From assembly GCA_048882325.1 (NCBI GenBank), contig JBHLRS010000019.1:1-60074 (forward strand): a stretch of DNA of 60,074 nt, read 5' to 3'. The notes under the pieces were generated by a model, which did not search any database, was not told the DNA's origin, and saw only the letters and a list, made by a program, of their open reading frames with translations. The position numbers and the translations under genes were made by a program. The stretch comes from Candidatus Thorarchaeota archaeon (lineage in GTDB: Archaea > Asgardarchaeota > Thorarchaeia > Thorarchaeales > Thorarchaeaceae). Positions 1-17,563 of the stretch are shown here, piece by piece. The first letter of the stretch is position 1; every line of letters begins with the position of its first letter.

Positions 1-3000
1 GTAACAGCTACCTTGACTATCACTATGGCTGATACAAGACTCTATCGTGCACCAAATTCATACGTCTTTAACATCCAGATTCTCGCACATGGCACATCAA
101 TGACGGTCACTGGTGTTACAACGACACCGTATGGCAATCAGACATATCTGACAGTCGCTCTGACGGATTTAGAAACTGGTGGGCCTGTTCCTTTTGGGTC
201 AGTTGCAAGCATTGAACTACAACATGCTTTTGGTACAGACAGCGGATTCACTAGCTTTGACTACGTTTTGGACACTAGTGCATGGCCTGTGGGAACTCAC
301 ACAGTCACAGTAGTTCTTACAATACTTGGTGGAGAACCTTACAACAATCCATCAAACTATCAATTTCAAATAACGATTCGGAGCATGTCTACAGTTATGT
401 ATCATGATCCATCCCCATTAAACTTCCCATTAGGAGCAGACTTCTCTGTGGACCTACGTCTCAATGTCAGCGAACCTGGACCTAACTATGGGAATCCAAT
501 AACCGGCAGAATAGCTGGTGAGTTCTCTGTTCCTGGATACGTTATCTCTATTGGCACGACCGAGCAAGCGGTTGGCCGTTACAAACTATCAATCAGTGCG
601 TCCTATTTCACAGGAGGAACCTATCAGATCATCGTATTCTTCACATCTGCAGACAATGTGTATGCAAACACATTCGTTGTGATTCAATTCCTCTATCGAG
701 AAGTAGACAGCACCTTAACCTCACCTAACTATCCACAAGTAACAACGCCGTATCAACTAGATGTGAAGATTGTACTCAATTACACTGACATTGACTTTGG
801 CTCAGGAATTGAAGGAGCTACCATCACCTCTCCAGATCATCCAACTTGGATTGCAAATTGGAGCGATAACGGGTTCGGCATCTATGGCGTCTGGATTGAT
901 GTTTCAACACTAAGTCAAGGTATATACTATCTTAATCTTACAGCTGATAAGTCAGGTATAATCGCAAAGACTCTGGAGTTCCGGATAGTTATCAGGTCTG
1001 CGTATACTTCAGTAATACCAACTGTCGGTTCCTTAAACATTCCAATTGGTAACTCATATGTCTTCTATGCTGAGTTCACGGACACAGACAGACTCATTCC
1101 GATTGATAATAGTTCAGCACCATATACCCTTGTTAGTTCAACATGGGGGAACTTCTCTGTTGTCTATGAGTCACTATCAGATATGTATAGAATCACATTC
1201 TACACATCAGATTCTGACACAATATCCCAAAATATCGTTTACACCTTTACTTTCTCAAAAGGTGCCAACTATCAGGTTGCAGAGTTCACCATCACAGTTT
1301 CAATTCGGACTCACAACACCGATTTCCGAATAGTTAGCTCTATCGAGCCAACTAGTACAATTGGTATCTTCAACATCTCCGTCTACTATGGAGACCTCGA
1401 TAATGCTATAGGAGTCAAGTCCGCTTCAGTTGACTTCTGGGTCGAGAATGCTTCGGGTGTTGTGAGCTCAAGTTATGCTTATGACTTGATTCTAGGTGAT
1501 GGATTCTATATCATCCAGGTACCTGCAGCTCAGTTTGGACTAGGGCTACAAACTCTCACAGTCCATGCAGACTGGACTGGAGTTGTAGCGATATATCAAG
1601 ACAAGTCATTTGTCACAACTGCGAATGTAGTCGGTCGAGAATCTGCCCTCACACTTCTTGTTGGTTCCGCGCCGACTCCATACAATGAAGACATGGCATA
1701 CACGTTCTTGTACAGTGACTTGTTCAGCAGTGTTGGCATTGACAACCTGACAGGGAATGTCTTCATCTATGTTAGTTTCACAGGTGAATCAGTCAGTCCG
1801 GATGATGTCGTGATTGTTGACCTATCATTAACTGAGGCTGGTAACTACTCTATTCAATTCAATACTGGAATCTTTAGTAGAACTGGACTCATATACATGA
1901 ATGTCTTCGTCAACTGGTCAAAGGGAGTGTCTCCTTATTATGCAAACAGGACTGATGTGGTTTCCCTTACTGTTTTACGAAGGGACACATTACTCTCTAT
2001 TTCACCACCATCTGCAACCAGTTACAATGAGAATGCTACCTTCACACTCACCTTTGAGGACATTGGTACTAGTACTCTCATTACAGGTCTCACAAAAGAT
2101 CAGATTGCTCTGAACATCTCCTTCTCATTAACTGAAACAGCAGGCGTTTACACAATTTCGTTTAACACAAATCAGTATCCTAGTTTAGGAACCAAAGCTA
2201 TCCGCATTGATGTGACATGGACGGGCGCTCCATTCTATGCCAGTCGGATTGGTAGAATAACCTACATCAATATCATCTATCGCGAAACCTACTTTGAATA
2301 TCTTACTCCGCCACCCACACCCTATGGTGACCAGGTTATATTCAATGTGACATGGACTGATATAACAAGCGGAGCTTCTGACCCAATCACATCTGCGACT
2401 CTAGAATTAAGGGAAGGATCCACTCCGATTAATCTGGCTGAGTATTCCTATTTCGAAATCGCTCCAGGAATCTATCAAGTGACCTTGAACACAACCTATG
2501 TGATGGGTCCCGGTACTGATACTCTGCGCATAATTATTTCAGCTGGAGTATTTTACATAGCTGACAGGACTGTGGACCGACTGTTCACAGTTGATTATCG
2601 TTTGACAGTGGTTGCAGCCAATCCAGTAGTTGATGTTCCTTACAACTCTTCAATTCTAATCACCCTCAATTATCTTGACCAGTTTACAGGTCAATCTATT
2701 ACAAACGATTCTGCTCATGTTACAATCTTGGTGACAGCACCCTCCGGAGCGGTCTTCACTTCATCTTGGATTGTCCAAAGTCAGGAGTATGAACTCGTAA
2801 TTCATTGGAATCCAAGCTGGAGCCCAATTCTTTGGGCTCCGGGAACTGTGCATGACTTTACAGTTGAGATGAGCTACGACTCTATAGCTCCTTTTTATGA
2901 TGCTGACACAGTATCAGGTACTTTCAAGATAAGGATTCGAGACTCGACACTTGCTCTAGACACAGAACCTGAAACAACTCCCTACCTAGATGATGCTATC

Positions 3001-6000
3001 TTCATTTTAGATTATACGGATGATGATGCAAGTGGTACTGGAATCGAAGGTGCCCTTGTAAACATATTAGACAATAATTCAATTCCTCTGAACCAAGGTG
3101 TCGATTACATAGTTTCCGATGCTGGAGGTTTTTACACCATAACGGTCCATTCAACAGCACTCGGTACTCTCGGTACTCATACATTGAGGGTTCAACTCAA
3201 TTGGTCAGGCGCTCCATATCATGAGAATGTGACTCGGAATGTCAATGTCCTAGTTCGCCAGAGGGAAACTAATCTTGACATTACTGTGCCTCCATCGCAA
3301 ACATTGTACTTCGATGATGTTTCCTTCACTTTCCAATACCTCGACGTTGATGCAGACATTCAGATAACAACCATCACTTCGACAAACATACGTCTCAGGT
3401 GGCCAAATAGCACAGTGATCAATTCTATCCTCTACACTGTGAACCAAGTCGGAGGATTATATGAAATCATAATCTCATCAACAGTGTTATCCACTAGCAC
3501 TGTTTCTGGATTGTCTCTTCGCGTAGAAATCGATTGGGATGGCGGAACAGCACCATATTACAAGGATGACAGCACGATTGTAAAAATCACAATTACAAGA
3601 AGAACTATGCTTGTTGAAACCAGTCAGATTGAGAGAACTCCCAAGGGTGACCTTCTCAACATCTCAGTACTAATCACAGATCTTGACAGTGAATTACCTG
3701 TAGACAACGCTATAATCCTCTTCAGCTGTCGATTCAACCCAAGCATGAGTTACTCAAGTGCAACTGGGTTCGGATATTACAACTTCACAATTGACACATC
3801 AACTCTGTTAGGTACGGGGACGTTCCTCTTTGACATTGAGATACAATGGGATCCTACTCGTGCACCGTTCTATGCTAACCGCTCCGTCATAACACTAACT
3901 GGCTTGGTTGATTTAGTTAGAACAACCTTCACTGTAGATATAATCACTCCCTCTTCAGTACAATACACTGGAACTGTGTCCTTACTAGTGACATGGCAAG
4001 ACCTAGATCATGGAGTGCCAATGACAGGTTATGCAGGAATCCTCAACTATAGCATCAATTATCTCGCTGGAGGAAGACCTCTACTGCTAAATGTATTCGA
4101 AACTGGGACTCTTGGCGAATATAATATCACATTCAGTACCTCTGATCGCACAATCGGAGCTCATACACTTGTTATCATTGCAGAAGTATCTCCATATTCA
4201 CCTGTAACTGTAACTCCACAGTTTAGTGTTGTTCCAATAAACACTGAATTGACGCCGATGGTAACATCAATCACAGATTATTGGAAGAATATAACTCCAA
4301 TTTCTGTCGATTATCTAGACCTGTTTAATGGCGTGCCTATATCAAGTGCTGCTAGCGTGACTTGGTCCTATGCGCCGTTAAGTCTCGGTGGTATTTTGAC
4401 CGAGGTTGGATCGACAGGAACCTATGAGGGTTTGGTTGATACGAATGCTTTCGAAGCTGGTACCTTCGTACTGACAATCACAGCCACAAAGAGTAGTTAC
4501 AGCACTGCGATAACTACGATAACACTTGTTGTACTACGGATTCCTAGTGAGATGTCTATCATATCACCCACTAAACTTGTCTATAATGTGAGCAGAGGAG
4601 ATCCGGTCTTTGTGCAAATTGAACTTATGGATCCCACAAGTGGTTTCCCGATTGGGAACACAGCTGTCCTAAATGAATCTGGCAATTATCAAGTCTATGC
4701 GGAGCTGAAAAGTGAAAGATATTACATGCTCTATGATGTTGGTAATGGATTGTGGAATGTAACAATACCTGGATCTGCTACTGTTCTTGAAGCTTTGTTG
4801 TCCTATGATGTGCAGATTTTCGCAGGTTTCAAGAATTACGATCCAGCTGTTGCTCAATTCACACTCTATATACAACAAGCATCAACGCAACTCAAAGTAA
4901 TTGGATTGCCTGATCCAACCAAACATGAAGTCTACTATCTTCAAGAGGTTACAATAGAACTCAATTTCACTGCCCCAAATCTTGACATGTTGATTGACAA
5001 CGCCAGTGTTAGATGGTTGGACTCAACACGGAACATTTCACTTGATTTCACATCCATGGGGAATGGAATTTGGAGTTTGACCTTCAATACTTCGATTCTT
5101 GGATTTGGCACTGTGGGAGTTTCATTCTATGGTTCCCCAGCCAATTCAACACTTGCTGATACTCTGACAAGTATGACATTGACTGTCAAGAAGATACCAA
5201 CTTCAATTGATGGCCCCACAGAACTCCTCAATCGTGTATGGGGTTGGCAAGGGAATATCGCACTGAATTTCAGTGACGACTATAATGACAGGAACGTTGC
5301 AGGAGCCACTGTGACTTTCAACTATGGAAATCTCGATTTTAACGCAACAGATCTCGGGAATGGTACATATGTTCTGTACATTGACACAACAATTTTGGAT
5401 TCAGGTTCACGAGAGAAGATATCAACATCATTCATTCTCGCAAACTACGAAGAGCGATCGTTTAGTTTCTACATAAATGTAGAGGAGCGTCCTACAGAGC
5501 TAATAGTTTCTTATCCTGACCAGAATCATGTTTCATTCATTGAAGATGTGATTACTCTAGAGCTTACGATGGGTGATGCTATAGACATCTCCCTATTCTA
5601 TAACGATACTAATACTATTGGTGGACTTCTTGGAGGTATCGAAGGTGCTAACTTCACCGCATACACCGAGCTCAGAGCTCCCTCTTACTTCTCTGGCTCT
5701 AGGACTGTTGTCTTCATCGATGGATTTGGTTACTATAATTTCACCTTTGACACAAATGATGTAACACTATATGATCGATATCCCGGTCCTACTATTCTCG
5801 AAGGCGACTACTTTACCTATACCATCGAGATTTTCTCTGAACACAGAGCCCTGCAGAAAATCGAGATTAGAATCAGGATCATTGAAACTCCAACAGAGAT
5901 CATATTCGATGGCGACGTTGTAGATCCGGACACTAACATTGTCTATACAATCACAAATGGTGAGGAAGTTGTCTTTGACTTCTATATCCGTGATACATGG

Positions 6001-7026
6001 CATGATGTAGGTGTACCTAGTGCAAGTTACTCCTTCACTTCTGGCGCGACCGCAATCATTAGTAGTAATACCACTCTCGGTGCTGGCAATTATCGACTTA
6101 TTATCAGAGCTGTAGATTACGGTGGAGACTCCTTGCTGACCGTCACATTAAGCACAGAATTTCATGATGATGTGGAGATGAGCTTTCTCATTCATACAGA
6201 ACCTAACGATTTCGATATTCTCTTCCGTGACTTCACGAGAATTGGACTCCCAATAAGCTTGTTTGTCATCTTATTGTTGGGTGCCTATGTCCGGGTTTGG
6301 AGTGTGCCAAAGAGAATCAGACAGATCAATGGGCAGCTCAAGGCACTTCGCAAGGGTAAAGTGCCCAAACCAATTGGTGATGTCAAGAGTCGACAACAGC
6401 TTGCAGCAGAACTCTTCAACGATACATTCTCCGAGTTCAAGATCACACGAACCGCAGCCCAGATGCCCGAGGATGCGATACCGATTGAGGTTCCTGAGAT
6501 GGGTGAACTGCTCATGCAACTTGCGATTCTCACCAATCTTAGTCAAGCAGAACTTGACGAGTTCCAGGCTGACATCAACAAGATGAAGATGAGTGAGCAA
6601 GCCGCCTTTGTGAAAGAGGTCATCATGCAAGAGGCTATCCGTGCCGCACGTCGTGATGGCAAAACCATTGAGGAGACCTTGGCTACAGTAGAACAGGAGG
6701 CCATACGTCGCCTCGGTGGAGAAGAAGAGATTGCTCCTGTTGAAGTTGTTGAACCTGAAGAGACTGAAACAGTCTTCCTGGAGGAAGGGAAAGAAGCAGA
6801 GGTCACCGAGGAGAAGTCCCTCTTACATAAGGATGAGGTCACTGAAGAGGGTCCAGAAGTAGCCTCAGAGAAAATGAGCCTATATGAGATTGAGGAGCTC
6901 CGGAGAGACCTCGAACGTAGAGGCGTACCTCCACATGAGATTGATACCATTGTCGAGCAGGCCAAAGAGCTGCCTCGGGAGCTTGTGGATGAACTCGTCA
7001 AGAGTCTAGAGGGTAAGAAGGACTAG
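1..7026 (+). CDS. Giant type-I membrane surface protein, 5'-truncated by the window; ~100-aa Ig-like beta repeats, C-terminal TM helix and cytoplasmic tail
   Basis: Frame is open from base 1 (gta aca gct acc ttg...). Recurrent TPY...D.D.G...G.Y.I..nT motifs and many N-x-S/T sequons. TM segment IGLPISLFVILLLGAYVRVW at ~6241-6300, then a charged tail. Colinear with the 7177 protein from about its residue 930 onward. Confidence 0.9.
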   Translation, partial: VTATLTITMADTRLYRAPNSYVFNIQILAHGTSMTVTGVTTTPYGNQTYLTVALTDLETGGPVPFGSVASIELQHAFGTDSGFTSFDYVLDTSAWPVGTHTVTVVLTILGGEPYNNPSNYQFQITIRSMSTVMYHDPSPLNFPLGADFSVDLRLNVSEPGPNYGNPITGRIAGEFSVPGYVISIGTTEQAVGRYKLSISASYFTGGTYQIIVFFTSADNVYANTFVVIQFLYREVDSTLTSPNYPQVTTPYQLDVKIVLNYTDIDFGSGIEGATITSPDHPTWIANWSDNGFGIYGVWIDVSTLSQGIYYLNLTADKSGIIAKTLEFRIVIRSAYTSVIPTVGSLNIPIGNSYVFYAEFTDTDRLIPIDNSSAPYTLVSSTWGNFSVVYESLSDMYRITFYTSDSDTISQNIVYTFTFSKGANYQVAEFTITVSIRTHNTDFRIVSSIEPTSTIGIFNISVYYGDLDNAIGVKSASVDFWVENASGVVSSSYAYDLILGDGFYIIQVPAAQFGLGLQTLTVHADWTGVVAIYQDKSFVTTANVVGRESALTLLVGSAPTPYNEDMAYTFLYSDLFSSVGIDNLTGNVFIYVSFTGESVSPDDVVIVDLSLTEAGNYSIQFNTGIFSRTGLIYMNVFVNWSKGVSPYYANRTDVVSLTVLRRDTLLSISPPSATSYNENATFTLTFEDIGTSTLITGLTKDQIALNISFSLTETAGVYTISFNTNQYPSLGTKAIRIDVTWTGAPFYASRIGRITYINIIYRETYFEYLTPPPTPYGDQVIFNVTWTDITSGASDPITSATLELREGSTPINLAEYSYFEIAPGIYQVTLNTTYVMGPGTDTLRIIISAGVFYIADRTVDRLFTVDYRLTVVAANPVVDVPYNSSILITLNYLDQFTGQSITNDSAHVTILVTAPSGAVFTSSWIVQSQEYELVIHWNPSWSPILWAPGTVHDFTVEMSYDSIAPFYDADTVSGTFKIRIRDSTLALDTEPETTPYLDDAIFILDYTDDDASGTGIEGALVNILDNNSIPLNQGVDYIVSDAGGFYTITVHSTALGTLGTHTLRVQLNWSGAPYHENVTRNVNVLVRQRETNLDITVPPSQTLYFDDVSFTFQYLDVDADIQITTITSTNIRLRWPNSTVINSILYTVNQVGGLYEIIISSTVLSTSTVSGLSLRVEIDWDGGTAPYYKDDSTIVKITITRRTMLVETSQIERTPKGDLLNISVLITDLDSELPVDNAIILFSCRFNPSMSYSSATGFGYYNFTIDTSTLLGTGTFLFDIEIQWDPTRAPFYANRSVITLTGLVDLVRTTFTVDIITPSSVQYTGTVSLLVTWQDLDHGVPMTGYAGILNYSINYLAGGRPLLLNVFETGTLGEYNITFSTSDRTIGAHTLVIIAEVSPYSPVTVTPQFSVVPINTELTPMVTSITDYWKNITPISVDYLDLFNGVPISSAASVTWSYAPLSLGGILTEVGSTGTYEGLVDTNAFEAGTFVLTITATKSSYSTAITTITLVVLRIPSEMSIISPTKLVYNVSRGDPVFVQIELMDPTSGFPIGNTAVLNESGNYQVYAELKSERYYMLYDVGNGLWNVTIPGSATVLEALLSYDVQIFAGFKNYDPAVAQFTLYIQQASTQLKVIGLPDPTKHEVYYLQEVTIELNFTAPNLDMLIDNASVRWLDSTRNISLDFTSMGNGIWSLTFNTSILGFGTVGVSFYGSPANSTLADTLTSMTLTVKKIPTSIDGPTELLNRVWGWQGNIALNFSDDYNDRNVAGATVTFNYGNLDFNATDLGNGTYVLYIDTTILDSGSREKISTSFILANYEERSFSFYINVEERPTELIVSYPDQNHVSFIEDVITLELTMGDAIDISLFYNDTNTIGGLLGGIEGANFTAYTELRAPSYFSGSRTVVFIDGFGYYNFTFDTNDVTLYDRYPGPTILEGDYFTYTIEIFSEHRALQKIEIRIRIIETPTEIIFDGDVVDPDTNIVYTITNGEEVVFDFYIRDTWHDVGVPSASYSFTSGATAIISSNTTLGAGNYRLIIRAVDYGGDSLLTVTLSTEFHDDVEMSFLIHTEPNDFDILFRDFTRIGLPISLFVILLLGAYVRVWSVPKRIRQINGQLKALRKGKVPKPIGDVKSRQQLAAELFNDTFSEFKITRTAAQMPEDAIPIEVPEMGELLMQLAILTNLSQAELDEFQADINKMKMSEQAAFVKEVIMQEAIRAARRDGKTIEETLATVEQEAIRRLGGEEEIAPVEVVEPEETETVFLEEGKEAEVTEEKSLLHKDEVTEEGPEVASEKMSLYEIEELRRDLERRGVPPHEIDTIVEQAKELPRELVDELVKSLEGKKD

Positions 7027-7050
7027 ACGCACCTAGTCCCTCTACCTTTT
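7020..7050 (+). terminator. Hairpin GGACTAG-ACGCAC-CTAGTCC followed by a pyrimidine/T tract
   Basis: Inverted repeat overlapping the stop codon, followed by ctctacctttt. Confidence 0.45.
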
Positions 7051-7176
7051 CTTATATTCTTCGAAAAAAAGAGAGAATTCACACGACATGTATTGATATA
7101 GATTTCAACTAATCTCATAGTTTAGTGATGAGTCTATCATTCAGGAGACGATAGACCCCTAAAAATCAGAACCACA

Positions 7177-10100
7177 ATGGTGCCGAGTATGAGGAAAAGC
7201 AGTTTTCTTTCCCTAGTCTTAATTACGTTGTTCATGTTTAGTCTTGCAGACCTGTCAGGAAATGGTACTCTGGCAACTGATACGGGACCGATACTAAACT
7301 ATCAAAATCAGGTCTCAGAGGCTGGCGGCACCTGGGTAGGCACTGGGTCTTCTCTGCCAGTTTCCTTCACTGGTACATTCACAAATAGTGATACTTGGAT
7401 AGATACTAGTACAACCCTCTCCTCTGATTTCACAGCTGGAACCTCTTTTGAAGTATCCAACTCAAGTACAGCGAAATGGACTGCTTACATTCTGGTTTCT
7501 CCACCTGCTGAGGTGGTAACTCTTAGTTTTACCGTGGACTATAATGAGACTGAGTGGCGGCCAACAACGCTCACCAATCCAGTTGGAGTTGTCATGACCT
7601 ATGCAACTGACTGGTGGTACGATGCTGGTCTTGTCTATGTAAGTGAATCTGCAGTAACAACGCATGGTGTATGGAAACTCGAATTCACAGCAATGAACCA
7701 TCTGCTTAATCTTGAGCTTGGTCTAAGCACTGGACCTTTGGGAACTACATCTAATTTCGTACTCAATAATGAGATACTGTTTCGAGGTACAAGCACTTGG
7801 ATTACTGGTTCCTCGACAGAATTTGTTCTGACAGACCCAACGGGTACTGTATGGCACTCAGCAACTAACACAACTGTAGGTTCCAATTCACATCTCCTTC
7901 AATCATTTCAATATAGGAAGGACATTACAATCGATAGGTCAAGACATCTTGGTACAAGCGTGAACAATTTCCCAGTCATGATTGATATCACAGATGCAGC
8001 CCTTCAGACACACGTACAAAGCGATGGTGATGACATCATCTTTGCTTCTGGCGGGAAAATCCTTTCACACCAGATTGAGTTCTTCGATCAGGTAACAGGT
8101 CATTTGATAGCTTGGGTCAAGACGAATCTGACTGGCTCAGTAAACACAGTCATCAGTATGTATTATGGAAATCCGCTTCTTGGTAATATGGAAAAACCAG
8201 AAGATGTCTGGACTGAGAGCTTCGCCTCTGTCTGGCATCTTGATGAGGCTGCTACAGCTGGACAAACAACATCGACTCATTATGACTCCACATCTGGAGG
8301 GTATGATGGAACGCAAAGTGGGAACTATGATGACACAGGAGCTGTCGGGAGTGGGCAGCACTTTGATGGCGTCAATGATCAGGTAGTCATTGCTGCGTCA
8401 AAGTCACTTGAGCCAACAGGTGATGTTGAGATTTCGGGTTGGTTCAAGCTTGATGTACCACACAACGCATTCTCAAGTTCAACGAAGATTCTGGTCACTA
8501 AGATGCTTGATGGTGACAATGATATGCACATTGCGCTTGTTGGGACTGACTATACAACAGCAGCGGCTTCTGATGGCAGTCTCGTTTTCAAGACTGAAAA
8601 TAGCAATGCTCAGATGTACAAATGGACCGCTCAAACAAGCTGGCAGGCTGGAGTTTGGTACTACTTTGCGTGTTTCATGGATGCCAGTACTCCAGCAAAC
8701 AACAGGATATACGTTCGAGCAATTCAAGATACTGCCGGAACAAGCGGAGGAACCACATTTGCTAATCTTTCTTTCATTGCAGATTGGGGCATTGGTGGTG
8801 GACTTATTGACCAAGTAGTAGGTAATCTTGCTTGGTTCGATGGCGTAATTGATGAGGTTCGTGTTTCCAATGTGGCAAATGGTAGGTCTGGAGCATGGAG
8901 AGCGGCTGAATGGTCCAATCTTAATGATCCCTCCACATTCTATTCAGTTGGTTCAGAGATTGAGAGAACCTCTCCTGATCCTCAGACAAAGAAGACTGTT
9001 GATGCCACAGCCATTGCTGGTTCATGGATTGTCACAGCTTACTACAATGATTCGGGTAGTTCAGTGAACTTTCGCGTAGGAATGTACGAAAGAGCCTTTA
9101 CCATTAAGCAGGCATCTAAATTGAGCCTCAATGCTCCTACCGATGCTGTCGGAGATAATATTACAGCGGCTACTATTGGTGATTCTGTCTATGTTCAAGT
9201 TGAACTCACTGATGACTTCACTTCTTCAGGGGTTATCGGTGCAACCGTAACTACCAATTGGACTATTTTTGGTACAGGAACTAACCTGCAATTCTATGAT
9301 GAGGGTGGAGGTCTTTATGGGCTAGTTCTAAATACAACCCAACTTGAGGATAACATACGATGGAGGCTTAATATAGAGTCAAATCATCCATACTATACTT
9401 ATGCAGAAATTCAACTCTTTATTGATCTCAGCCATGATACTGTTTTGGGTTTCAATAACGTAGACTCAACACCTATAGGATTTGACTTCACAGCGACACT
9501 AGTCTATGTAGATACTTATGGCGGTAGTCCAATTGCAGGTGCAACAATCACATTTGCTAATGGTACACCTGTGAATGTTGTTTCTGAACTGAATGGTCAA
9601 TACAATATCTCTCTATCAACCTCGGGACTTAGTGCTGGGGTATATACATTCAGATTCAATGCTACAAAGTCAGGTGCGCTTCTTGAGATGGCCAGTGTGG
9701 AGATTACATTCATTCTTAGACCTCACTACACTGCAGTATCAGTTTCTGGTGACCTCTTGACACCATCAGGCTTCAATACTCCCGTGACTGTAGTCCTAGT
9801 AGATTTGGATACAGGAAGCCTTGTTGACATCAGTAATGTGGCCTCGATAACATTCACGACAACAAACTATGGGTCTCCATTATTTGGAACCTTCACTCCT
9901 ACTTTGCTTACAAACTCATGGAATGTCGGTGTAGAAGATATCACAATCACTGTGAGTATGTCAAGCTCGGATTACTATGCTCCAGATGCATATGATTTCC
10001 AAGTGACCATTAGGAAACACTACACCTCTGCAACAGTCATTGGAAATTTGGTGACTCCGTTTGGTAACAACACACCTCTGACTGTGGTTTTAGTTGACCT

Positions 10101-13100
10101 TGATACTGGTGGAAGTGTGGCTGTAGCGGCTGTTGATTCCATCGAGCTAGACTCGATCATCTATCCTCTTTACTTCGATGGTTCACCCTCTAGTTTCAAT
10201 GTACTCCTACTGACAGGTGATGACTCTTGGGCTGTTGGATCCCGGACTGCGACTCTAAGAATCGTGATGTTGGTGTCATCGATATACCAAGATCCAACAG
10301 ATTACGCTTTTACCGTGACCATCAGAAGCATGGCTACGTATCTCTATAATGAACCAAGCGACCTCAGATTTCCAAATGGTGACGACTTCTACATCGCTTT
10401 AAGGTTCAATGTAAGCGAGATTGGTCCTAACTATGGTGACTATATAGCAGGTCTCACAGCTGGCGAATTCGCGATTAGCAATGGGACCTTCACTTATCCG
10501 AAGACAATCAACAATTTTGGATTTGGAATATACAATCTTACTATTGCTGCCTCTTATTTCCCTGAAGGCACCTATACAATCTATGTGACAGTTAATCCAT
10601 CTGATCCTCGCTATGCCTCAACCCAACTAGTTCTGATCTTCGACTATCGACCGACGAGAACTGATCTGACATCTAACATCTACACCATCTCGACACCTTA
10701 CGAACATGATGTTGTCGTCACATTATTCTTTGAAGACCTTGACAGGAGCCTTGGCATTACTACTGGAATAATAACATCACTGGATGCCACAATTGGATAT
10801 GTTCACACAGGCGGTGGTTACTACGATGTGACCATTGATGTTACAGGTCTAACTATCGTAGCCAGCCCTCACATAATAACTCTGACTGCTGATGCAACGG
10901 GCTATGACTCCCGCGATATCGACATTACTATTATCATTACTGAAATTCACACCGATGCTGAACCCTCGTTAATATCACTTGACATGCCTGTGGGTGACAT
11001 CAAGATATTCACAATTGACTTCAACGACCTAGATAACGGTGTCCCCATAGGTACTGCCACAGTTACCCATAACTGGACCGTTCAGCCCAATGTTGTTGTG
11101 TCTTGGACTGGAACCAACTGGCAGGTCACATTCACTACAACAGGTTCTGACCCTCTAGGTACCTATACAGTCTGGTTCAACTTTGACGAAGGTTCTGGTA
11201 ACTATCAGGATGGTTACTGTGAGATTGAGGTCATTGTAAGAAGTCATACAACTCTGTTCAACTTGGTCAGTGCAGTCGAACCAACACCGTTCAATGGTCT
11301 CGTTAATATCTCTTTGAGATACTGGGATTGGGATAACAACGTTGGTATCGATACTGACACAAATATCTCCTCCACTGTGTGGAATGGAACTGCTTGGATT
11401 CCTCACACACTTGTTAATGATCCCGCTGTAGGTTATTACACAATACAGATAGATGCGACTCAATTCAGCCAGGGTGTCCAGAACTTTGACATCTACTTCA
11501 CATGGACTGGACTTGTCCAACAATATGAGGACAAAACGACGACTGCATCGGTCAACATAATCGGAATTGACTCCCAGCTTACTTTACTACAGTCCTCGGA
11601 ACCAACTCCGTACCTTGATTCAATGTTGTATATCTTCAATTACGCTGAAACCAGCGGGCTTGGTATTACGAATTCCAGCTATGGTGGAGGAAATGTACAC
11701 ATCTCTGTTAGTTTTCAAGGTGAAACCGTCGATCTTGGACAAGTAACGATTACAGAGATTGATCCAGTCCTTCAACCTGGCGACTATTCAATCTCCTTCA
11801 GTACAACAATCTTCGGTAGGACTGGACTCATCTATATGAATGTCTACATCAATTGGTCTGCTGGTGTGGCACCATACTACACCAATCGATTTGATGTGAT
11901 ATCCGTTCGAGTGCTTCCACGCGACACTGTCCTCTCTGTTGTATCTCCAACTCCAGAATCTTATGGTGAAAACGCTACATTCTCTTTCACTTTTGAGGAT
12001 GTCACAGGTGGTGCAAGCGTTCCAATAGATGATAACCCTGCAATGAATGTGAGTCTAAGTCTGGCAGGTTACACCTTGACATGGAATGGTGGCACTCACA
12101 CATTCACTGTGTCATTCAATACAAGTCAATTTGGTGCTCCTCTAGGACAGAAGTCATTCACTCTTAGTGTAACTTGGTCCGGTACTCCTTACTATACCAA
12201 CAGAACTGGTCACACTGTCTTCATTACTGTAACTGCACGTCAGACAGTATTCGACTATCAGTCACCTGCACCAACCTCATATCTCAACAATGTGACAATC
12301 AATCTTGACTGGACTGATGTTTCCGGTGCCGCCACACGGGGGATTGAAGGAGCTACTATCACACTTCTAGAAGGTGCAATTCCAATCTCAAGTTTTTACT
12401 ACACGGTCTATGACATCGGAGGAGGCCTTTACGAAGTGGTGCTCAACACGACTGCTTTTGCTACTCCTGCAGACTATGATCTTACTATTGAGCTAACAAC
12501 TGGCTATTTCTACATCAATAATGTCAGTTCTCACCGTACTCTCAGAGTACTGTATCGACAATCACTTCTTTCCGCAGAACCTATTGGACCCACGCCATAC
12601 AATTCTTCCCTTGTCTATATCCTCGACTTCTTGGATAGAGAAACATCGGGCACGATTGGAAATGAAACCAGTCTTGTTTCTTTAAGCATCCTCAATGGAA
12701 GTGATTGGTTCTTTACAGTAGAGTGGATGTCTGGATTCGAGTACTACGAACTCACCATTTTGACCTATAACCATCCCGAGCTTGTAATTGGTGTGGAGTA
12801 TGTCCTACAGATAGAGGCTTCATTCTCCAATCAGGTGCCTTTCTATGGATCTGATGACACCTTTGTGTTCTTTGAACTCAGAACTCGCGCCTCTACAGTT
12901 TCTCTCATCGACTCGCCTGATCCAACTGCATATCTCGAAAATTCAGTGTTTAGGGTTCAATACCTTGATACAGACAGTGGTATAGGAATTACAGCAGATA
13001 GTATCTCCATTCACAGAGGTGTATTCACACTCACACCTGGAACAGATTATATCCTATCTTTTGAAGGCAACGGACTCTATTTTGTTACTTTGAATACGAC

Positions 13101-16100
13101 CGCTCTAGGCGGTATAGGCTCTACAACTATACAGGTTCGAGCTTTCTGGACAGGTGGCTCTCCATATCATGATGATGCGACATTGGATGTTAATGTATAC
13201 GTCACAAAGAGAGAGGCCAATGTCGAGATCACCACACCACCTACACAAGCAAGATATCTTGACAATGTCACCTTCCAATTTGTATATCGTGATTTGGCAA
13301 CAGCAACTGTGATTGATAGCATAACAATCAATGAAATCCAGATTTGGGCTGGTGGTATTCTACTCACTCCCCTCCAATATTCAATATCTGAAGTATCAGG
13401 GACTTTCACTGTCAGCATCAATTCAACTGTTCTGAGTGCAGGATTGGTTAGTAATTACAATGTGACTGTGTTCGCTGATTGGAATGACGCGACTGCTCCC
13501 TTCTATTTCGATGATGCCACAATAGTACGAGTGTCAACTAGAGGGAGAAGTATGTCATATTCTGTCCTACCAGCTGAAGAAACAGCGTATGGTGAGTTGC
13601 TCAATCTATCATTCTCATTACTCGATGCTGATTCAGGCAATCCAGTTAGTGACCTTCATACAGTCATCAGTTTTGACCTTCAGAGTGGCGGTCTTACTCC
13701 GGGAGTTGACTTTTGGATACTAGGGTCACCTGGTTTGTTCACCGTTCAGATTGATACCACGGCTTTAGGCAATCCTGGGACCTACCACTTTGACCTTGAT
13801 ATTAGCTGGGATGGGTCGGCTCCATACTATCTTGGTTTGGCTACTATAGATATGATCGGTATTGTAAACAAGATTGATACAATTCTAATTCCAACACAAG
13901 ATATTGTGGAGGTTCAATGGTCCGCTTCTACTTCAATCACAGTAACATACCAGAGTTTGCTTGATAGCAGTCTGATCGATGGGGCTGATGTAATTTGGGA
14001 GTCGCCATTTGAGTATGCAGGTCCTGCTGGATTTATTGGCTCAGGTCAATACCAGGCTTCAATTGACACAGCTGCATATGCTGGTCTTCATGTAGGTACC
14101 TACGTGATTACTATCACAGTAGAGAATCTTACTGCATACAAATCAGCTATTGCATACGTCACTCTTGTTATTACTGCACTTGACAGTGAGATGACTTTGA
14201 TAGATCCAGCTACACCCGTCATCAGCATTAATCGAGGTGCTGCATTACCAATCACTGTATACTTGACGGATGGTAGCTTCATTCCGATTTCTAACTCACA
14301 AGTGACTCAAGTTGTTGCTACACTGGATGATATCTATCAATTCACTCTTGCATACACTGGAACTCCTGGATATTATTCAGGTCTTCTCCCTGCGGATGAT
14401 GAAACTGCAACAAAGAGAGCTCCTGGAATTCCGTATGATGTCATTCTTTCATCGACGTTTCAAGACTATTACCCAGCAGTCTACTCATTCACGTTCCTGG
14501 TCTTGCAAACGAAAACCGCTGTCAATCTCACAGGTGACACAACTGAAGACATGACCTTTGTATATTCAGAGGCTGGATTACTAGAAGTAAATGTGGTGCT
14601 TCCAGATGCTGGTGTGCCAACCTATTTCTGGAATGGTACAGTCCAGTGGTCAATCTCTGACTTGGGTCTGAGTGGAAACTTCAGTACCGATTATGGTAAT
14701 GGGACATATTCAACACTCCTCGATACTACACTCATAGGTTATGGCATTGTACCACTAACTTTGACCTTCATTCCATGGCAAAATATGTCACTCTATGCAT
14801 CATCCATCCGTCTCATTACAGTCGCAATTACACGTATACAAACTTCAGCAACCCCACCGATTGGACGCGACTTCATATGGGGCTGGAGTGGTTATCTTGA
14901 GTTCATCTTTTGGTCAGAGTCGTTCGACACAGGAATCCCGGGTGCAAGTGTCACAGTAACCTTGCCAGGTGCTGAATTTACGTCCGCGATAGACCTCAAT
15001 AATGGGTCATACCTTATCTATCTCAACACAACCCTGCTTCGAGCCAGTTCAAGCTATTTGCCACTGACTGTGACTTTCTCTAAGGCAAATTACCTTGCAG
15101 CGAGTTCAATAATTCAAATTAGGGTCCTTGAGGTCCCCACTGAAATCTCTGTGCATTCTATTGATTACACGCCCGCATATGCAGGTGACCTGACTGACTT
15201 TCTCAATCTTCAGATTCCTCTTGGGGACTCGATGGCTATCATCTTCTGGTATAATGACACCGATATCTCTGACCTCTATGTTGGAGGTCTTTCTGGTGCC
15301 TCTGCTACACAGGATAGTTTACTGCGTGGTCCCACGATTGCTGAGCCAATTAGCGTCACTGTAATTTCACTTGGCAATGGTCTGTATCAGGTCATCTTCG
15401 ATACGATGGACCCAGACGTTAGTGCCATCGTTAGTCCTCTTAAATATCAATTATCAGTTGCACTTGAGTTTGAAAATCGAACAACATCTCAAATTCTGTT
15501 CAACATTGAAGTGATCAATACTCCCACAGAGTTATTGATTAATGGAGTAGTTCCAGATGTTTTGACAAATGGTGATTCAGTGACTATTGAGCTGCTATAT
15601 CACGACGTCTGGCATAATCTTGGGATTCCTGGAGCAACATTTTCAGCAAACGCAAGCGCAGGTTCTCCATTCACAGGCCACCTAGAGGCTGGTACAGCTC
15701 CCGGACAATACTTCCTCACGATCAGTACAGGAGGAATCATGTTTAGTCCGGGCTCTGGTACTCTAATAATAAATCTAAATGCTGAATCATACGCTCAAGG
15801 CACTACCTCAATCTTCATCGAAGTTGAACAGAGCAGCTTTGATGTTCTTGTCACTAATGGTGTGTTCTATGGATTCCCATTAATCCTAATTATCTCTCTC
15901 ATAGGTGGTGCATATCTACGAGTTTGGAGCGTACCCAAACGTCTGCGTCAAATCAATAAAATGATTAAATCTATGCGAAAGAGGAAGGTTCCCAAACCAG
16001 TTAGTGATGCAAAAAGCAGACAACAGCTCATAACCGACCTCTTCAATGATACCTATGAGGATCTTGGAATAACTCGTACCGCAGAGCAATTTACCGAGGA

Positions 16101-16683
16101 ATCAATCCCTGTTCAGGTCCCCGAGGTTGGTGAACTTCTTATACAACTCTCAATTCTTACTAACCTGAACCAGCAGGAACTCGACGAGTTCAAGGCAGAC
16201 ATTGCAAAGATGAAGATGAGCGAGCAAGCCGCCTTCGTAAAAGAGGTCATCATGCAGGAGGCCATCCGTGCAGCTCGCCGTGATGGCAAGAGCGTAGATG
16301 AGATTCTTGAGGAAGTCCAAAAGGATGCTGCTCAGAAACTCGCAGGTGAAAAAGGTAGAGATGTGCCTGAAGGAGTTGAGGTTGAAGAGGAAGAAGAGGA
16401 AGTCGAGCCAGTCTTCTTAACACCTGAAGAGACGGCACCGGTATCTGAACCAGTCGTTTCGCCTGATAAGCCAACTGAGCCTGCTCCGACAGAGGACATC
16501 AGCTTCACCAGTGAAACACTTAGTCCCTTCGAGATTGATGAACTCAGGAAGGAGCTTGTGGAGAAGGGTGTTCCCGCATCTGAGATTGACATCATCCTCA
16601 AACAGGCTGAAGAGCTTCCACGAGAACTTGTTGAAGAGCTCATACGAAGCCTTGATGCGGAGCGGCTACGAGGCGACCTCTGA
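7177..16683 (+). CDS. Giant type-I membrane surface protein (3168 aa): signal peptide, DUF2341 plus LamG/ConA-like module, Ig-like repeat stalk, TM helix, cytoplasmic tail
   Basis: MRKSSFLSLVLITLFMFSLA signal. YRKDITID..NFPVMI..DGDDIIF..LSHQIE..AWVK..MYYGNP (DUF2341-like). VWHLDE...FDGVIDEVRVS (LamG-like). TM segment GVFYGFPLILIISLIGGAYLRVW. Confidence 0.92.
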   Translation: MVPSMRKSSFLSLVLITLFMFSLADLSGNGTLATDTGPILNYQNQVSEAGGTWVGTGSSLPVSFTGTFTNSDTWIDTSTTLSSDFTAGTSFEVSNSSTAKWTAYILVSPPAEVVTLSFTVDYNETEWRPTTLTNPVGVVMTYATDWWYDAGLVYVSESAVTTHGVWKLEFTAMNHLLNLELGLSTGPLGTTSNFVLNNEILFRGTSTWITGSSTEFVLTDPTGTVWHSATNTTVGSNSHLLQSFQYRKDITIDRSRHLGTSVNNFPVMIDITDAALQTHVQSDGDDIIFASGGKILSHQIEFFDQVTGHLIAWVKTNLTGSVNTVISMYYGNPLLGNMEKPEDVWTESFASVWHLDEAATAGQTTSTHYDSTSGGYDGTQSGNYDDTGAVGSGQHFDGVNDQVVIAASKSLEPTGDVEISGWFKLDVPHNAFSSSTKILVTKMLDGDNDMHIALVGTDYTTAAASDGSLVFKTENSNAQMYKWTAQTSWQAGVWYYFACFMDASTPANNRIYVRAIQDTAGTSGGTTFANLSFIADWGIGGGLIDQVVGNLAWFDGVIDEVRVSNVANGRSGAWRAAEWSNLNDPSTFYSVGSEIERTSPDPQTKKTVDATAIAGSWIVTAYYNDSGSSVNFRVGMYERAFTIKQASKLSLNAPTDAVGDNITAATIGDSVYVQVELTDDFTSSGVIGATVTTNWTIFGTGTNLQFYDEGGGLYGLVLNTTQLEDNIRWRLNIESNHPYYTYAEIQLFIDLSHDTVLGFNNVDSTPIGFDFTATLVYVDTYGGSPIAGATITFANGTPVNVVSELNGQYNISLSTSGLSAGVYTFRFNATKSGALLEMASVEITFILRPHYTAVSVSGDLLTPSGFNTPVTVVLVDLDTGSLVDISNVASITFTTTNYGSPLFGTFTPTLLTNSWNVGVEDITITVSMSSSDYYAPDAYDFQVTIRKHYTSATVIGNLVTPFGNNTPLTVVLVDLDTGGSVAVAAVDSIELDSIIYPLYFDGSPSSFNVLLLTGDDSWAVGSRTATLRIVMLVSSIYQDPTDYAFTVTIRSMATYLYNEPSDLRFPNGDDFYIALRFNVSEIGPNYGDYIAGLTAGEFAISNGTFTYPKTINNFGFGIYNLTIAASYFPEGTYTIYVTVNPSDPRYASTQLVLIFDYRPTRTDLTSNIYTISTPYEHDVVVTLFFEDLDRSLGITTGIITSLDATIGYVHTGGGYYDVTIDVTGLTIVASPHIITLTADATGYDSRDIDITIIITEIHTDAEPSLISLDMPVGDIKIFTIDFNDLDNGVPIGTATVTHNWTVQPNVVVSWTGTNWQVTFTTTGSDPLGTYTVWFNFDEGSGNYQDGYCEIEVIVRSHTTLFNLVSAVEPTPFNGLVNISLRYWDWDNNVGIDTDTNISSTVWNGTAWIPHTLVNDPAVGYYTIQIDATQFSQGVQNFDIYFTWTGLVQQYEDKTTTASVNIIGIDSQLTLLQSSEPTPYLDSMLYIFNYAETSGLGITNSSYGGGNVHISVSFQGETVDLGQVTITEIDPVLQPGDYSISFSTTIFGRTGLIYMNVYINWSAGVAPYYTNRFDVISVRVLPRDTVLSVVSPTPESYGENATFSFTFEDVTGGASVPIDDNPAMNVSLSLAGYTLTWNGGTHTFTVSFNTSQFGAPLGQKSFTLSVTWSGTPYYTNRTGHTVFITVTARQTVFDYQSPAPTSYLNNVTINLDWTDVSGAATRGIEGATITLLEGAIPISSFYYTVYDIGGGLYEVVLNTTAFATPADYDLTIELTTGYFYINNVSSHRTLRVLYRQSLLSAEPIGPTPYNSSLVYILDFLDRETSGTIGNETSLVSLSILNGSDWFFTVEWMSGFEYYELTILTYNHPELVIGVEYVLQIEASFSNQVPFYGSDDTFVFFELRTRASTVSLIDSPDPTAYLENSVFRVQYLDTDSGIGITADSISIHRGVFTLTPGTDYILSFEGNGLYFVTLNTTALGGIGSTTIQVRAFWTGGSPYHDDATLDVNVYVTKREANVEITTPPTQARYLDNVTFQFVYRDLATATVIDSITINEIQIWAGGILLTPLQYSISEVSGTFTVSINSTVLSAGLVSNYNVTVFADWNDATAPFYFDDATIVRVSTRGRSMSYSVLPAEETAYGELLNLSFSLLDADSGNPVSDLHTVISFDLQSGGLTPGVDFWILGSPGLFTVQIDTTALGNPGTYHFDLDISWDGSAPYYLGLATIDMIGIVNKIDTILIPTQDIVEVQWSASTSITVTYQSLLDSSLIDGADVIWESPFEYAGPAGFIGSGQYQASIDTAAYAGLHVGTYVITITVENLTAYKSAIAYVTLVITALDSEMTLIDPATPVISINRGAALPITVYLTDGSFIPISNSQVTQVVATLDDIYQFTLAYTGTPGYYSGLLPADDETATKRAPGIPYDVILSSTFQDYYPAVYSFTFLVLQTKTAVNLTGDTTEDMTFVYSEAGLLEVNVVLPDAGVPTYFWNGTVQWSISDLGLSGNFSTDYGNGTYSTLLDTTLIGYGIVPLTLTFIPWQNMSLYASSIRLITVAITRIQTSATPPIGRDFIWGWSGYLEFIFWSESFDTGIPGASVTVTLPGAEFTSAIDLNNGSYLIYLNTTLLRASSSYLPLTVTFSKANYLAASSIIQIRVLEVPTEISVHSIDYTPAYAGDLTDFLNLQIPLGDSMAIIFWYNDTDISDLYVGGLSGASATQDSLLRGPTIAEPISVTVISLGNGLYQVIFDTMDPDVSAIVSPLKYQLSVALEFENRTTSQILFNIEVINTPTELLINGVVPDVLTNGDSVTIELLYHDVWHNLGIPGATFSANASAGSPFTGHLEAGTAPGQYFLTISTGGIMFSPGSGTLIINLNAESYAQGTTSIFIEVEQSSFDVLVTNGVFYGFPLILIISLIGGAYLRVWSVPKRLRQINKMIKSMRKRKVPKPVSDAKSRQQLITDLFNDTYEDLGITRTAEQFTEESIPVQVPEVGELLIQLSILTNLNQQELDEFKADIAKMKMSEQAAFVKEVIMQEAIRAARRDGKSVDEILEEVQKDAAQKLAGEKGRDVPEGVEVEEEEEEVEPVFLTPEETAPVSEPVVSPDKPTEPAPTEDISFTSETLSPFEIDELRKELVEKGVPASEIDIILKQAEELPRELVEELIRSLDAERLRGDL

Positions 16684-16685
16684 GT

Positions 16686-17462
16686 CTAGTCCTCTTCTGT
16701 CCTCTCCTCTTTTCTGAGGAAGTAAGAGAGAGGTAGAGTTGTTCCAGAGGAAACAGTCTTTGTTCGATTGGTCCTCCTGACCGGATATTGAGGATGTTTA
16801 GCGAGTGTGTAGGTTCGACGTGACTTGGACTCGGACACCTTGATGTGAATCTGAGCAGAACCTGAAAGAGTCTTCCCGCCCTCAGGAAGACTCGGATTCC
16901 TCTTTGAGACCGGAGCTGACAACAGCGTGAAGATTCCTCTCCTGAGAGTGAGTGCTGAGATCTTCGATGCCATGTGTGATATCTCCTGCATCCCCTCTCC
17001 CTTGAGCCCCTCCTCTAGATACAGCTGTGGAAGTCCAGTCACCATGAGAACTCGAGCTGGAATCATGTCAAGAAATCCTTCAAGTTGGGCCATAACAAGA
17101 TCGTAGGTCTGTGATGCATTGAACGCCCGAGAGATGTAGATTCTATCCATCACAATCTCGGGTTCAAGTTCATACTCATATGCGAGTTCCGTGAACCTCT
17201 CCATCTTGATGATGTTCGCGCTGTCTATAATAATGGTTGGACTCTCTAGTCCTCCACGCTCTTTGGGAGTCTGCATCTTTACTGCAATACGATGGAAGTC
17301 ATCGTGAAGCGAACGGTCGCCGTAGAAGAGATGGATCAACCCCGACTCGATTCCACCACCCAGGAGACTGTCAAGTGCCACAATGCCTGACTCGACTTTA
17401 ACACTTAGGAATTCATCTGCTGTGCGAAATCCCTGTTTTAATGGAATCTCTGGCTGTTTCAT
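16686..17462 (-). CDS. RadA/Rad51-family paralogue with degenerate Walker A and B motifs
   Basis: SGIVALDSLLGGGIESGLIHLFYG, MDRIYISRAFN and PEGGKTLSGSAQIHI match the RadA core. P-loop reads GDRSLHDD. Start moved to ATG 17462 (MKQPEIP). Confidence 0.8.
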   Translation of the reverse strand: MKQPEIPLKQGFRTADEFLSVKVESGIVALDSLLGGGIESGLIHLFYGDRSLHDDFHRIAVKMQTPKERGGLESPTIIIDSANIIKMERFTELAYEYELEPEIVMDRIYISRAFNASQTYDLVMAQLEGFLDMIPARVLMVTGLPQLYLEEGLKGEGMQEISHMASKISALTLRRGIFTLLSAPVSKRNPSLPEGGKTLSGSAQIHIKVSESKSRRTYTLAKHPQYPVRRTNRTKTVSSGTTLPLSYFLRKEERTEED

Positions 17463-17563
17463 CTCAGATGTAAGTGTAGCATCAGTCCCATATAACCACC
17501 CCCAGAAGGCCAAAACATAGGTTTCCGATTCTGGCAATTGTTAAAAGGGACCGACGAAGATGT

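Follow-up and report, generated by a model that had tools for sequence, protein, structure and literature searches.

We describe here a family of giant archaeal surface proteins that is encoded, among other places, at the start of a contig of a Candidatus Thorarchaeota archaeon (GenBank assembly GCA_048882325.1, contig JBHLRS010000019.1, 60,074 nucleotides, analyzed over its full length and hereinafter the window; C19 in our numbering of this 3.6-Mb, 93% complete assembly). Two long open reading frames (ORFs) of the + strand, P0001 and P0002, occupy the first 16.7 kb of the window. It is close to certain that they belong to a lineage-restricted, so far unnamed family of giant type-I membrane glycoproteins of Thorarchaeota, which combine a long stalk of immunoglobulin (Ig)-like repeats with a single transmembrane helix and a conserved, folded tail of about 250 amino acids (aa). 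As for their function, we lean, at somewhat better than even odds, toward long-stalk, lectin-tipped surface receptors or tethers, the tail of which would engage a cytoplasmic partner. The features of the two genes are as follows.

1..7026, + strand: P0001, the upstream giant gene, open at its 5' end (2341 aa kept of about 4080)
91..6198, + strand: 19 Ig-like repeats of P0001, residues 31-2066, about 100 aa each (iterated repeat hidden Markov model, HMM)
6241..6291, + strand: transmembrane helix of P0001, about residues 2081-2097 (hydropathy peak and sequence)
6292..7023, + strand: tail of P0001, 244 aa, with a basic juxtamembrane motif, a helical block, an acidic linker and a terminal helical module (profiles, alignment, composition)
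7027..7176, no strand: spacer between the P0001 and P0002 genes, 150 bp
7177..16683, + strand: P0002, the downstream giant gene, complete (3168 aa)
7177..7248, + strand: signal-peptide-like N-terminus of P0002, MVPSMRKSSFLSLVLITLFMFSLA (sequence and hydropathy, without a dedicated predictor)
8023..8208, + strand: DUF2341 domain, P0002 residues 283-344 (Pfam PF10102, E 2e-5, 25-26 bits, cut-off 23.4)
8368..8877, + strand: Laminin_G_3 / ConA-like lectin domain, P0002 residues 398-567 (Pfam PF13385, E 3.5e-8, 34.2 bits, cut-off 27.6)
9136..15828, + strand: 21 Ig-like beta-sandwich repeats of P0002, residues 654-2884 (repeat HMM, AlphaFold2, Foldseek)
15862..15918, + strand: transmembrane helix of P0002, about residues 2896-2914 (hydropathy; AlphaFold2 helix 8-38)
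15919..16680, + strand: tail of P0002, 254 aa (alignment, AlphaFold2, composition)
16126..16341, + strand: helical bundle of the P0002 tail, residues 2984-3055 (AlphaFold2 confidence mostly >90, invariant columns)
16525..16671, + strand: terminal three-helix module of P0002, residues 3117-3165 (AlphaFold2, module profile)

The two proteins produce a single colinear BLASTP alignment, with 33% identity over 2000 aa. This alignment contains both string pairs (RLNVSEPGPNYG/RFNVSEIGPNYG and RTGLIYMNVFVNWS/RTGLIYMNVYINWS) that were quoted in the original prediction, a reading of the DNA sequence made prior to the present analysis, in support of two colinear paralogues with repeats aligned in order; every element of that first observation (ORFs, repeats, glycosylation sequons, transmembrane helix, tail and head) was recovered here. 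The window begins at base 1 of the contig and the P0001 gene is therefore cut by the contig end. The same pair is intact in two genomes of the same genus with longer contigs (G354 and G362), where the upstream protein consists of 4072-4105 aa and the downstream one of 3171-3187 aa. The complete orthologue of P0001 in G354 (P0121, 4072 aa) matches it at 53% identity over residues 1744-4071, so that P0001 lacks about 1743 N-terminal residues; P0002 and the downstream protein of G354 are likewise 53% identical. To judge from P0121, the absent part includes the signal peptide, two DUF2341 modules and about three repeats; a search for the N-terminal part of P0001 in the rest of the assembly, including the contig ends C8 and C57, yielded no match. 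Altogether, the host genome encodes exactly six proteins with this tail, arranged in three same-strand tandem pairs on contigs C19, C6 and C16. The C6 pair (C6:35023-65636, - strand) consists of proteins of 6208 aa and 4011 aa, and the C16 pair of an upstream protein of >2187 aa, cut by a contig end, and a downstream protein of 2573 aa. In both of these loci the paired ORFs abut or overlap, unlike the C19 genes with their 150-bp spacer.

The tail is the part of these proteins that most clearly sets them apart. Each protein contains one strongly hydrophobic segment, located near the C-terminus; the net charge is +9 in the 30 residues that follow this helix and -3 before it, and the composition switches from an ectodomain rich in Thr, Ser, Gly and Asn, with 1% Lys, to a tail rich in Glu and Lys. 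Given this positive-inside charge distribution, the switch in composition and the signal-peptide-like N-terminus of P0002, the topology is predicted to be type I, with the tails in the cytoplasm, as initially proposed for cytoplasmic tails of 240-250 aa (the two tails have 244 and 254 aa). The AlphaFold2 model of the P0002 tail, obtained from an alignment of 35 sequences and numbered from P0002 residue 2880, has a mean predicted local distance difference test score (pLDDT) of 83.8, with 181 of the 289 residues at pLDDT >=90. It consists of the transmembrane helix (8-38), a short basic helix (42-55), another helix (69-80) and a helical bundle (105-176), followed by a disordered acidic linker (about 181-235) and a terminal three-helix bundle (238-286). 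The alignment of 35 diverse members has 14 invariant tail columns, and the helical bundle contains the invariant block ..KMKxSEQAAFVKEVIxQEA...

The tail is also more conserved than the ectodomain. Between the paralogues P0001 and P0002 the identity is 62% in the tail core compared to 36% in the ectodomain, and between orthologues it is 74-76% compared to 51-52%, with 74-80% in the terminal module. Proteins exposed on the cell surface usually change at the rate seen in the ectodomain, which is 51-53% identical between species of one genus. An extracellular tail, or one not conserved among homologues, would have counted against the original prediction; the topology and the conservation seen here speak against both. 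The terminal module is always located at the extreme C-terminus and is present in four copies in the downstream C6 protein (4011 aa); given this position and its multiplication in one paralogue lineage, its behavior is that of a docking unit. An origin of the two tail modules by internal duplication was examined with hhalign, which yielded a probability of 40% over 21 columns, so duplication is not established.

Neither of the two helical domains of the tail has a credible relative in the PDB, ESM Atlas, Pfam or NCBIfam searches. The best Foldseek match of the tail in the PDB has an E-value of 0.9, and a PDB profile search returned E-values of 0.13 or worse; in a VIA-align comparison with 48,161 chains the highest Z was 6.0, a usual value for helical models. 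Searched by shape, the ESM Atlas contained nothing above a template modelling score of 0.31, and by features it offered no usable match. With Pfam at E-values up to 10 only sub-threshold noise was seen (MobC_2, Bap31_C, RecX_HTH1), and NCBIfam offered no meaningful match to the tails. Among the VIA-align matches, a death-domain-like one (Z 5.4) and several resembling the three-helix protein-A/GA domains were rejected as generic. The terminal module was also considered as a SAP or HeH-LEM domain and this assignment was dropped: there is no SAP or LEM match at E-values up to 10, and the model is a three-helix rather than a two-helix bundle with generic structural neighbors.

The stalk repeats match no family in Pfam or NCBIfam, and are so diverged that a BLAST comparison of the protein with itself misses them; an iterated profile HMM seeded on one repeat detects them and was used for counting. 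The AlphaFold2 model of repeats 10-12 of P0002, built on an orthologue alignment (an alignment of paralogous di-repeats was out of register and was not used), comprises three beta-sandwich domains with a pLDDT of 94 and a predicted template modelling score (pTM) of 0.77. The high pTM indicates that, in this model, the repeat-to-repeat geometry is defined and the links are near-rigid. The Foldseek neighbors are tandem Ig-like arrays; they comprise titin I-band Ig domains, protocadherin EC1-4 and NCAM Ig1-3 (E-values of about 1e-9 to 6e-10 for the latter two, which are among the top ones), the adhesin FdeC (4e9l), the tetra-repeat of an Aeromonas RTX-adhesin (6xi1) and the S-layer proteins SbsB and SbsC. 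By sequence, the repeats match none of the solved chains. The modelled fold is a generic Ig-like one, and the Ig-like sandwich anticipated for these repeats thus emerged from both the model and the structural comparison. The abundance of N-x-S/T glycosylation sequons, likewise pointed out from the sequence, exceeds that in shuffled sequences by a factor of about 1.7 to 2 (50 and 46 in the stop-to-stop ORFs vs 30.3 +/- 5.2 and 22.7 +/- 4.4), and the sequons are concentrated in the ectodomain, at 1.7-2.1 per 100 aa compared to 0.4-0.8 in the tail.

The number of repeats is constant inside each orthologous group. Downstream-type proteins have 21 (P0002 as well as all six others that were counted), upstream-type proteins 22, those of the C6 type 23 and those of the C16 type 17, and there are other orthologous groups in the family with 31 or 33. 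Each repeat is maintained on its own, without homogenisation, and the order of the repeats is the same in the paralogues. Given this fixed number and the individual maintenance of the repeats, the length of the stalk appears to be under selection.

At the distal end of P0002, both head domains score above the Pfam gathering cut-offs, and the ConA/LamG-type module found by Pfam bears out the suggestion of a lectin-like tip. The signal peptide and the DUF2341-LamG module were originally attributed to the complete copy, where they are indeed found; the attribution has to be extended to the upstream type, given that Pfam detects two DUF2341 stretches in the N-terminal head of P0121, which implies lectin-like heads in both copies. 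The head is larger still in the 6208-aa C6 protein, which contains at least seven DUF2341-LamG-like modules.

Among 1.84 billion representative proteins, the tail matches 118 clusters only. For matches listed with a start position and a protein length, the tail is in every case the C-terminus of a giant protein or of a fragment of one; the named homologues are all "hypothetical protein" or, in some cases, "LamG domain-containing protein" in NCBI, and their sources are Candidatus Thorarchaeota, apart from a few inconsistently labelled metagenome-assembled genomes. Among 400 genomes of the phylum, the tail was found in 80 of the 85 that belong to the same family as the host, in the single genome of a sister family of the same order, and in none of the 314 others. 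A pair of the type found in the window, with the tails 9.6-10.3 kb apart, is present in at least eight genomes from three genera. The literature searches made turned up no paper on the family. Within the host genome, the profiles of the three tail sub-modules match the six family ORFs only, apart from one juxtamembrane-only match. The latter is found in a single-pass membrane protein of 174 aa that has hardly any ectodomain and is encoded among housekeeping genes (G000 C36:7403-7927; L030:5404-5928, + strand). Its juxtamembrane segment matches that of the giants with an hhalign probability of 94.9% over 48 columns, and the protein may be a relative that has the tail only, or another protein that makes use of the same juxtamembrane docking motif.

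A profile search for remote relatives across the Asgard phylum extends this picture. A single remote match to the repeat profile exposed a second branch, present in all 19 genomes of the Asgard family that we denote f14 (NCBI labels mostly Hermodarchaeota or Promethearchaeota; genomes G093-G111, and loci L031 and L032 on Joint Genome Institute metagenome contigs). Here three or four tandem genes encode proteins of 1400-2300 aa that have the repeat type, the transmembrane helix and the juxtamembrane motif in common with the giants; the helical tail is clearly diverged, yet it matches the Thorarchaeal tails at E-values of 1e-8 to 1e-15. In f22, a third and large Asgard family (16 of 135 genomes; loci L037-L041 come from genomes G151, G164, G228, G233 and G276), tandem proteins of about 1200 aa have the repeats and the juxtamembrane motif, here (V/Y)PKx(V/I)RK(I/V)RK, with tails that are short or coiled-coil-like, and in one case a Lys/Glu-rich repeat. 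In these alignments this motif is the most widely conserved piece of what seems to be a superfamily. Given that the repeats, the transmembrane helix as well as the juxtamembrane basic motif are common to the Thorarchaeal, f14 and f22 branches, these three elements probably represent the ancient core, and the two-domain tail of 250 aa would be a Thorarchaeal elaboration with a diverged version in f14.

The neighborhoods of the giant genes contain a Rad51-like gene, GcvH, an AAA ATPase and ThiI. The first of these, a Rad51/RadB-like gene (window 16686-17537, - strand), is convergent to the downstream giant gene, and in G354 and G362 an ORF of similar size with a similar C-terminal end occupies the same position; the Rad51/RadB-like identity comes from a Pfam run for the window copy alone, the other two ORFs being matched by size and C-terminal end. 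No functional link between this gene and the giant genes was seen.

Under the reading that we favor, the proteins would be exported by the Sec pathway and N-glycosylated and would stand tens of nanometres off the membrane, with the stalk reaching about 80 nm if fully extended (we assume roughly 4 nm per Ig-like domain). The lectin-like tip may bind glycans, whether these belong to particles, to partner cells or to the envelope of the cell itself, and the folded tail may dock a cytoplasmic partner, which would make the whole a transmembrane tether or receptor by which the surface is coupled to the cell interior; it is probable that the tandem partners act in concert. The fold of the tail, its conservation and the repetition of its terminal module are the whole basis for proposing docking. 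By contrast, a transmembrane helix and a few basic residues form the C-terminus of other large surface proteins encoded in this genome. A role in cell-cell contact, to which the original prediction attached the relevance of the proteins for Asgard biology, is pure conjecture. Several observations weigh against a receptor or tether. The searches run detected no relative of the tail with a known function. The LamG and DUF2341 matches, modest as they are, give no indication of a ligand. Neither the three loci of this genome nor the orthologous loci have a conserved neighbor or partner gene in common, the surrounding genes being housekeeping ones only. To these can be added the existence of an S-layer protein with the same ectodomain plan, to which we turn now.

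The main competing possibility, to which we assign a distinctly smaller but substantial share of the probability, is that the proteins build a colossal S-layer or envelope canopy in which the Ig stalks are the pillars, the N-terminal heads form the lattice, held at a fixed height above the membrane, and the tail only organises or anchors the pillars. PySLP of Pyrobaculum arsenaticum, with a signal peptide, 19 Ig-like domains, a C-terminal transmembrane helix and a conserved basic stretch, reaches 37 nm from the membrane and demonstrates that the same ectodomain plan can build an S-layer, so that adhesins and envelope lattices cannot be told apart by this plan alone (bioRxiv 10.64898/2026.08.21.746120). 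Of the features by which colossal S-layer proteins are recognized, the present family has the signal peptide, the tandem Ig-like domains and the C-terminal membrane anchor but not the short basic tail. The statement in the original prediction that S-layer proteins normally lack large cytoplasmic domains holds for PySLP, the tail of which is short and basic; what PySLP removes is the force of the contrast for the rest of the molecule, being an S-layer protein with about 19 Ig-like domains and a transmembrane anchor. The occurrence of SbsB and SbsC among the structural neighbors of the repeats and the near-universal presence of the family in its lineage also fit an envelope layer, and a strictly fixed number of repeats that keep their identity fits a defined height better than an adhesin with variable repeats. 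On the other hand, it would be unusual for a single lattice to involve six paralogues in one genome that fall into three classes of stalk (17, 21-22 and 23 repeats), and the folded tail of 244-254 aa has no counterpart in the described S-layer proteins, the PySLP homologues having a short basic tail. Furthermore, the envelope could equally be formed by several proteins of this genome that have the classical archaeal surface-protein ending, namely a Pro/Thr-rich linker, a transmembrane helix and a few basic residues; proteins of 1265-2314 aa with this ending (G000 C1, C7, C10, C14 and C45) are alternative candidates for the main envelope layer. The genome also contains a 4960-aa ORF that lacks the family tail (G000 C21:38060-52939, - strand).

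We regard as quite improbable a third explanation, namely that these are secreted or shed glycan-binding proteins for polymer foraging, with the transmembrane helix and tail serving as a transient anchor. LamG/ConA-like modules are common in both glycan-binding and glycan-degrading proteins, and their presence in the head, particularly in at least seven copies in the 6208-aa C6 paralogue, is what speaks for foraging; however, no catalytic domain was detected in the Pfam and NCBIfam scans of the family proteins, and no part of the protein is better conserved than the tail, which speaks against a disposable anchor.

Whether the tandem partners form an obligate heterodimer, in the manner of the alpha and beta subunits of integrins (the original prediction considered heterodimers possible), is a separate question, given that such a dimer is compatible with either the receptor or the S-layer interpretation; we consider it doubtful, although not negligible. 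At least three genera retain the same-strand tandem layout; co-transcription is suggested by ORFs that touch or overlap at two of this genome's three loci; and the partners have nearly equal repeat numbers, 22/21 (from the complete orthologues; 19 are visible in P0001), 23/23 and 17/17. However, equal numbers may simply be inherited from a tandem duplication, the remote f14 branch has arrays of three or four genes rather than pairs, and Pfam detects no integrin-type domains (FG-GAP propeller, beta-I or VWA). A maximum-likelihood tree of the last 1780 ectodomain residues combined with a 150-residue stretch that runs from the juxtamembrane motif into the tail groups the two C16 proteins with each other, places the clade of upstream C19-type proteins as sister to the downstream C19-type clade, and leaves the upstream and downstream C6 proteins unresolved. 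Because the partners group by locus, there are no universal alpha and beta lineages. Co-folding of membrane-proximal segments, P0001:1849-2245 with P0002:2676-3070, using their own alignments, gave a score of 0.00 with controls not run, and counts neither way. What the conserved tandem linkage and the abutting or overlapping ORFs suggest is co-expression, and no more.

[quoted passage not shown] We put this forward as an unlikely, if attractive, proposal. Of all known prokaryotes, Asgard archaea are the most closely related to eukaryotes, and cell contact and the coupling between surface and interior bear on models of eukaryogenesis. The family is near-universal in Thorarchaeota and multi-copy, at 7 to 19 kb per gene, yet it is unannotated, and we know of no cultured Thorarchaeon. 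The tail, a small soluble domain, can be expressed and used as bait for cytoplasmic partners, and the fixed repeat numbers predict surface densities at discrete heights in cryo-electron tomography.

Among known systems, the closest in architecture is PySLP, which was compared with the family by architecture and not by sequence (it is not detectably present in the PDB copies searched). The two have an archaeal origin in common, and both combine a signal peptide and a non-canonical N-terminal head with about 19-21 Ig-like domains, a single C-terminal transmembrane helix and a basic stretch immediately behind the membrane. Beyond this, the present family has some 250 further residues that comprise two folded helical domains, as well as six paralogues, tandem pairs and DUF2341-LamG heads. 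With cadherins, protocadherins, Ig-CAMs and integrins, the family shares a glycosylated beta-sandwich array, one transmembrane helix and a conserved tail, which in the eukaryotic receptors binds adaptors; it differs in the lack of sequence homology and in a tail that resembles no catenin-, talin- or ankyrin-binding tail. This likeness is one of design, not of membership. Pfam, at E-values up to 0.1 over both whole proteins, detects no Cadherin, I-set, FG-GAP, Integrin_beta or VWA domain, and, at E-values up to 0.01, no FG-GAP propeller or beta-I/VWA-like domain in the P0121 head. Membership in the integrins was rejected on the lack of FG-GAP and beta-I domains and on a tree without two anciently separated subunit lineages, and membership in the cadherin superfamily on the lack of a Pfam Cadherin match, the likeness to protocadherins being at the fold level only.

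Giant bacterial repeat adhesins (RTX adhesins and those of the FdeC/invasin type) resemble the family in the long rod of roughly 100-aa Ig-like extenders and in the ligand-binding modules at the distal tip. These adhesins are anchored in the outer membrane or cell wall, exported by type I or type V secretion systems (T1SS or T5SS), and have near-identical repeats of variable number and no cytoplasmic domain; the Thorarchaeal repeats, by contrast, are diverged, individually conserved and fixed in number, and belong to a type-I membrane protein with a cytoplasmic tail. Surface proteins with DUF2341 (PF10102) and Laminin_G_3 (PF13385) domains are similar in that the head module of P0002 matches both families, which cover, however, only about 300 of its 3168 residues. 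In the searches run, no described archaeal surface protein was found to have a folded, conserved cytoplasmic domain on a giant Ig array. Thus, giant Ig-array surface proteins of archaea are already known; what is new in the present family is the pair of cytoplasmic domains, the paired or tandem genes and the narrow distribution among Asgard archaea.

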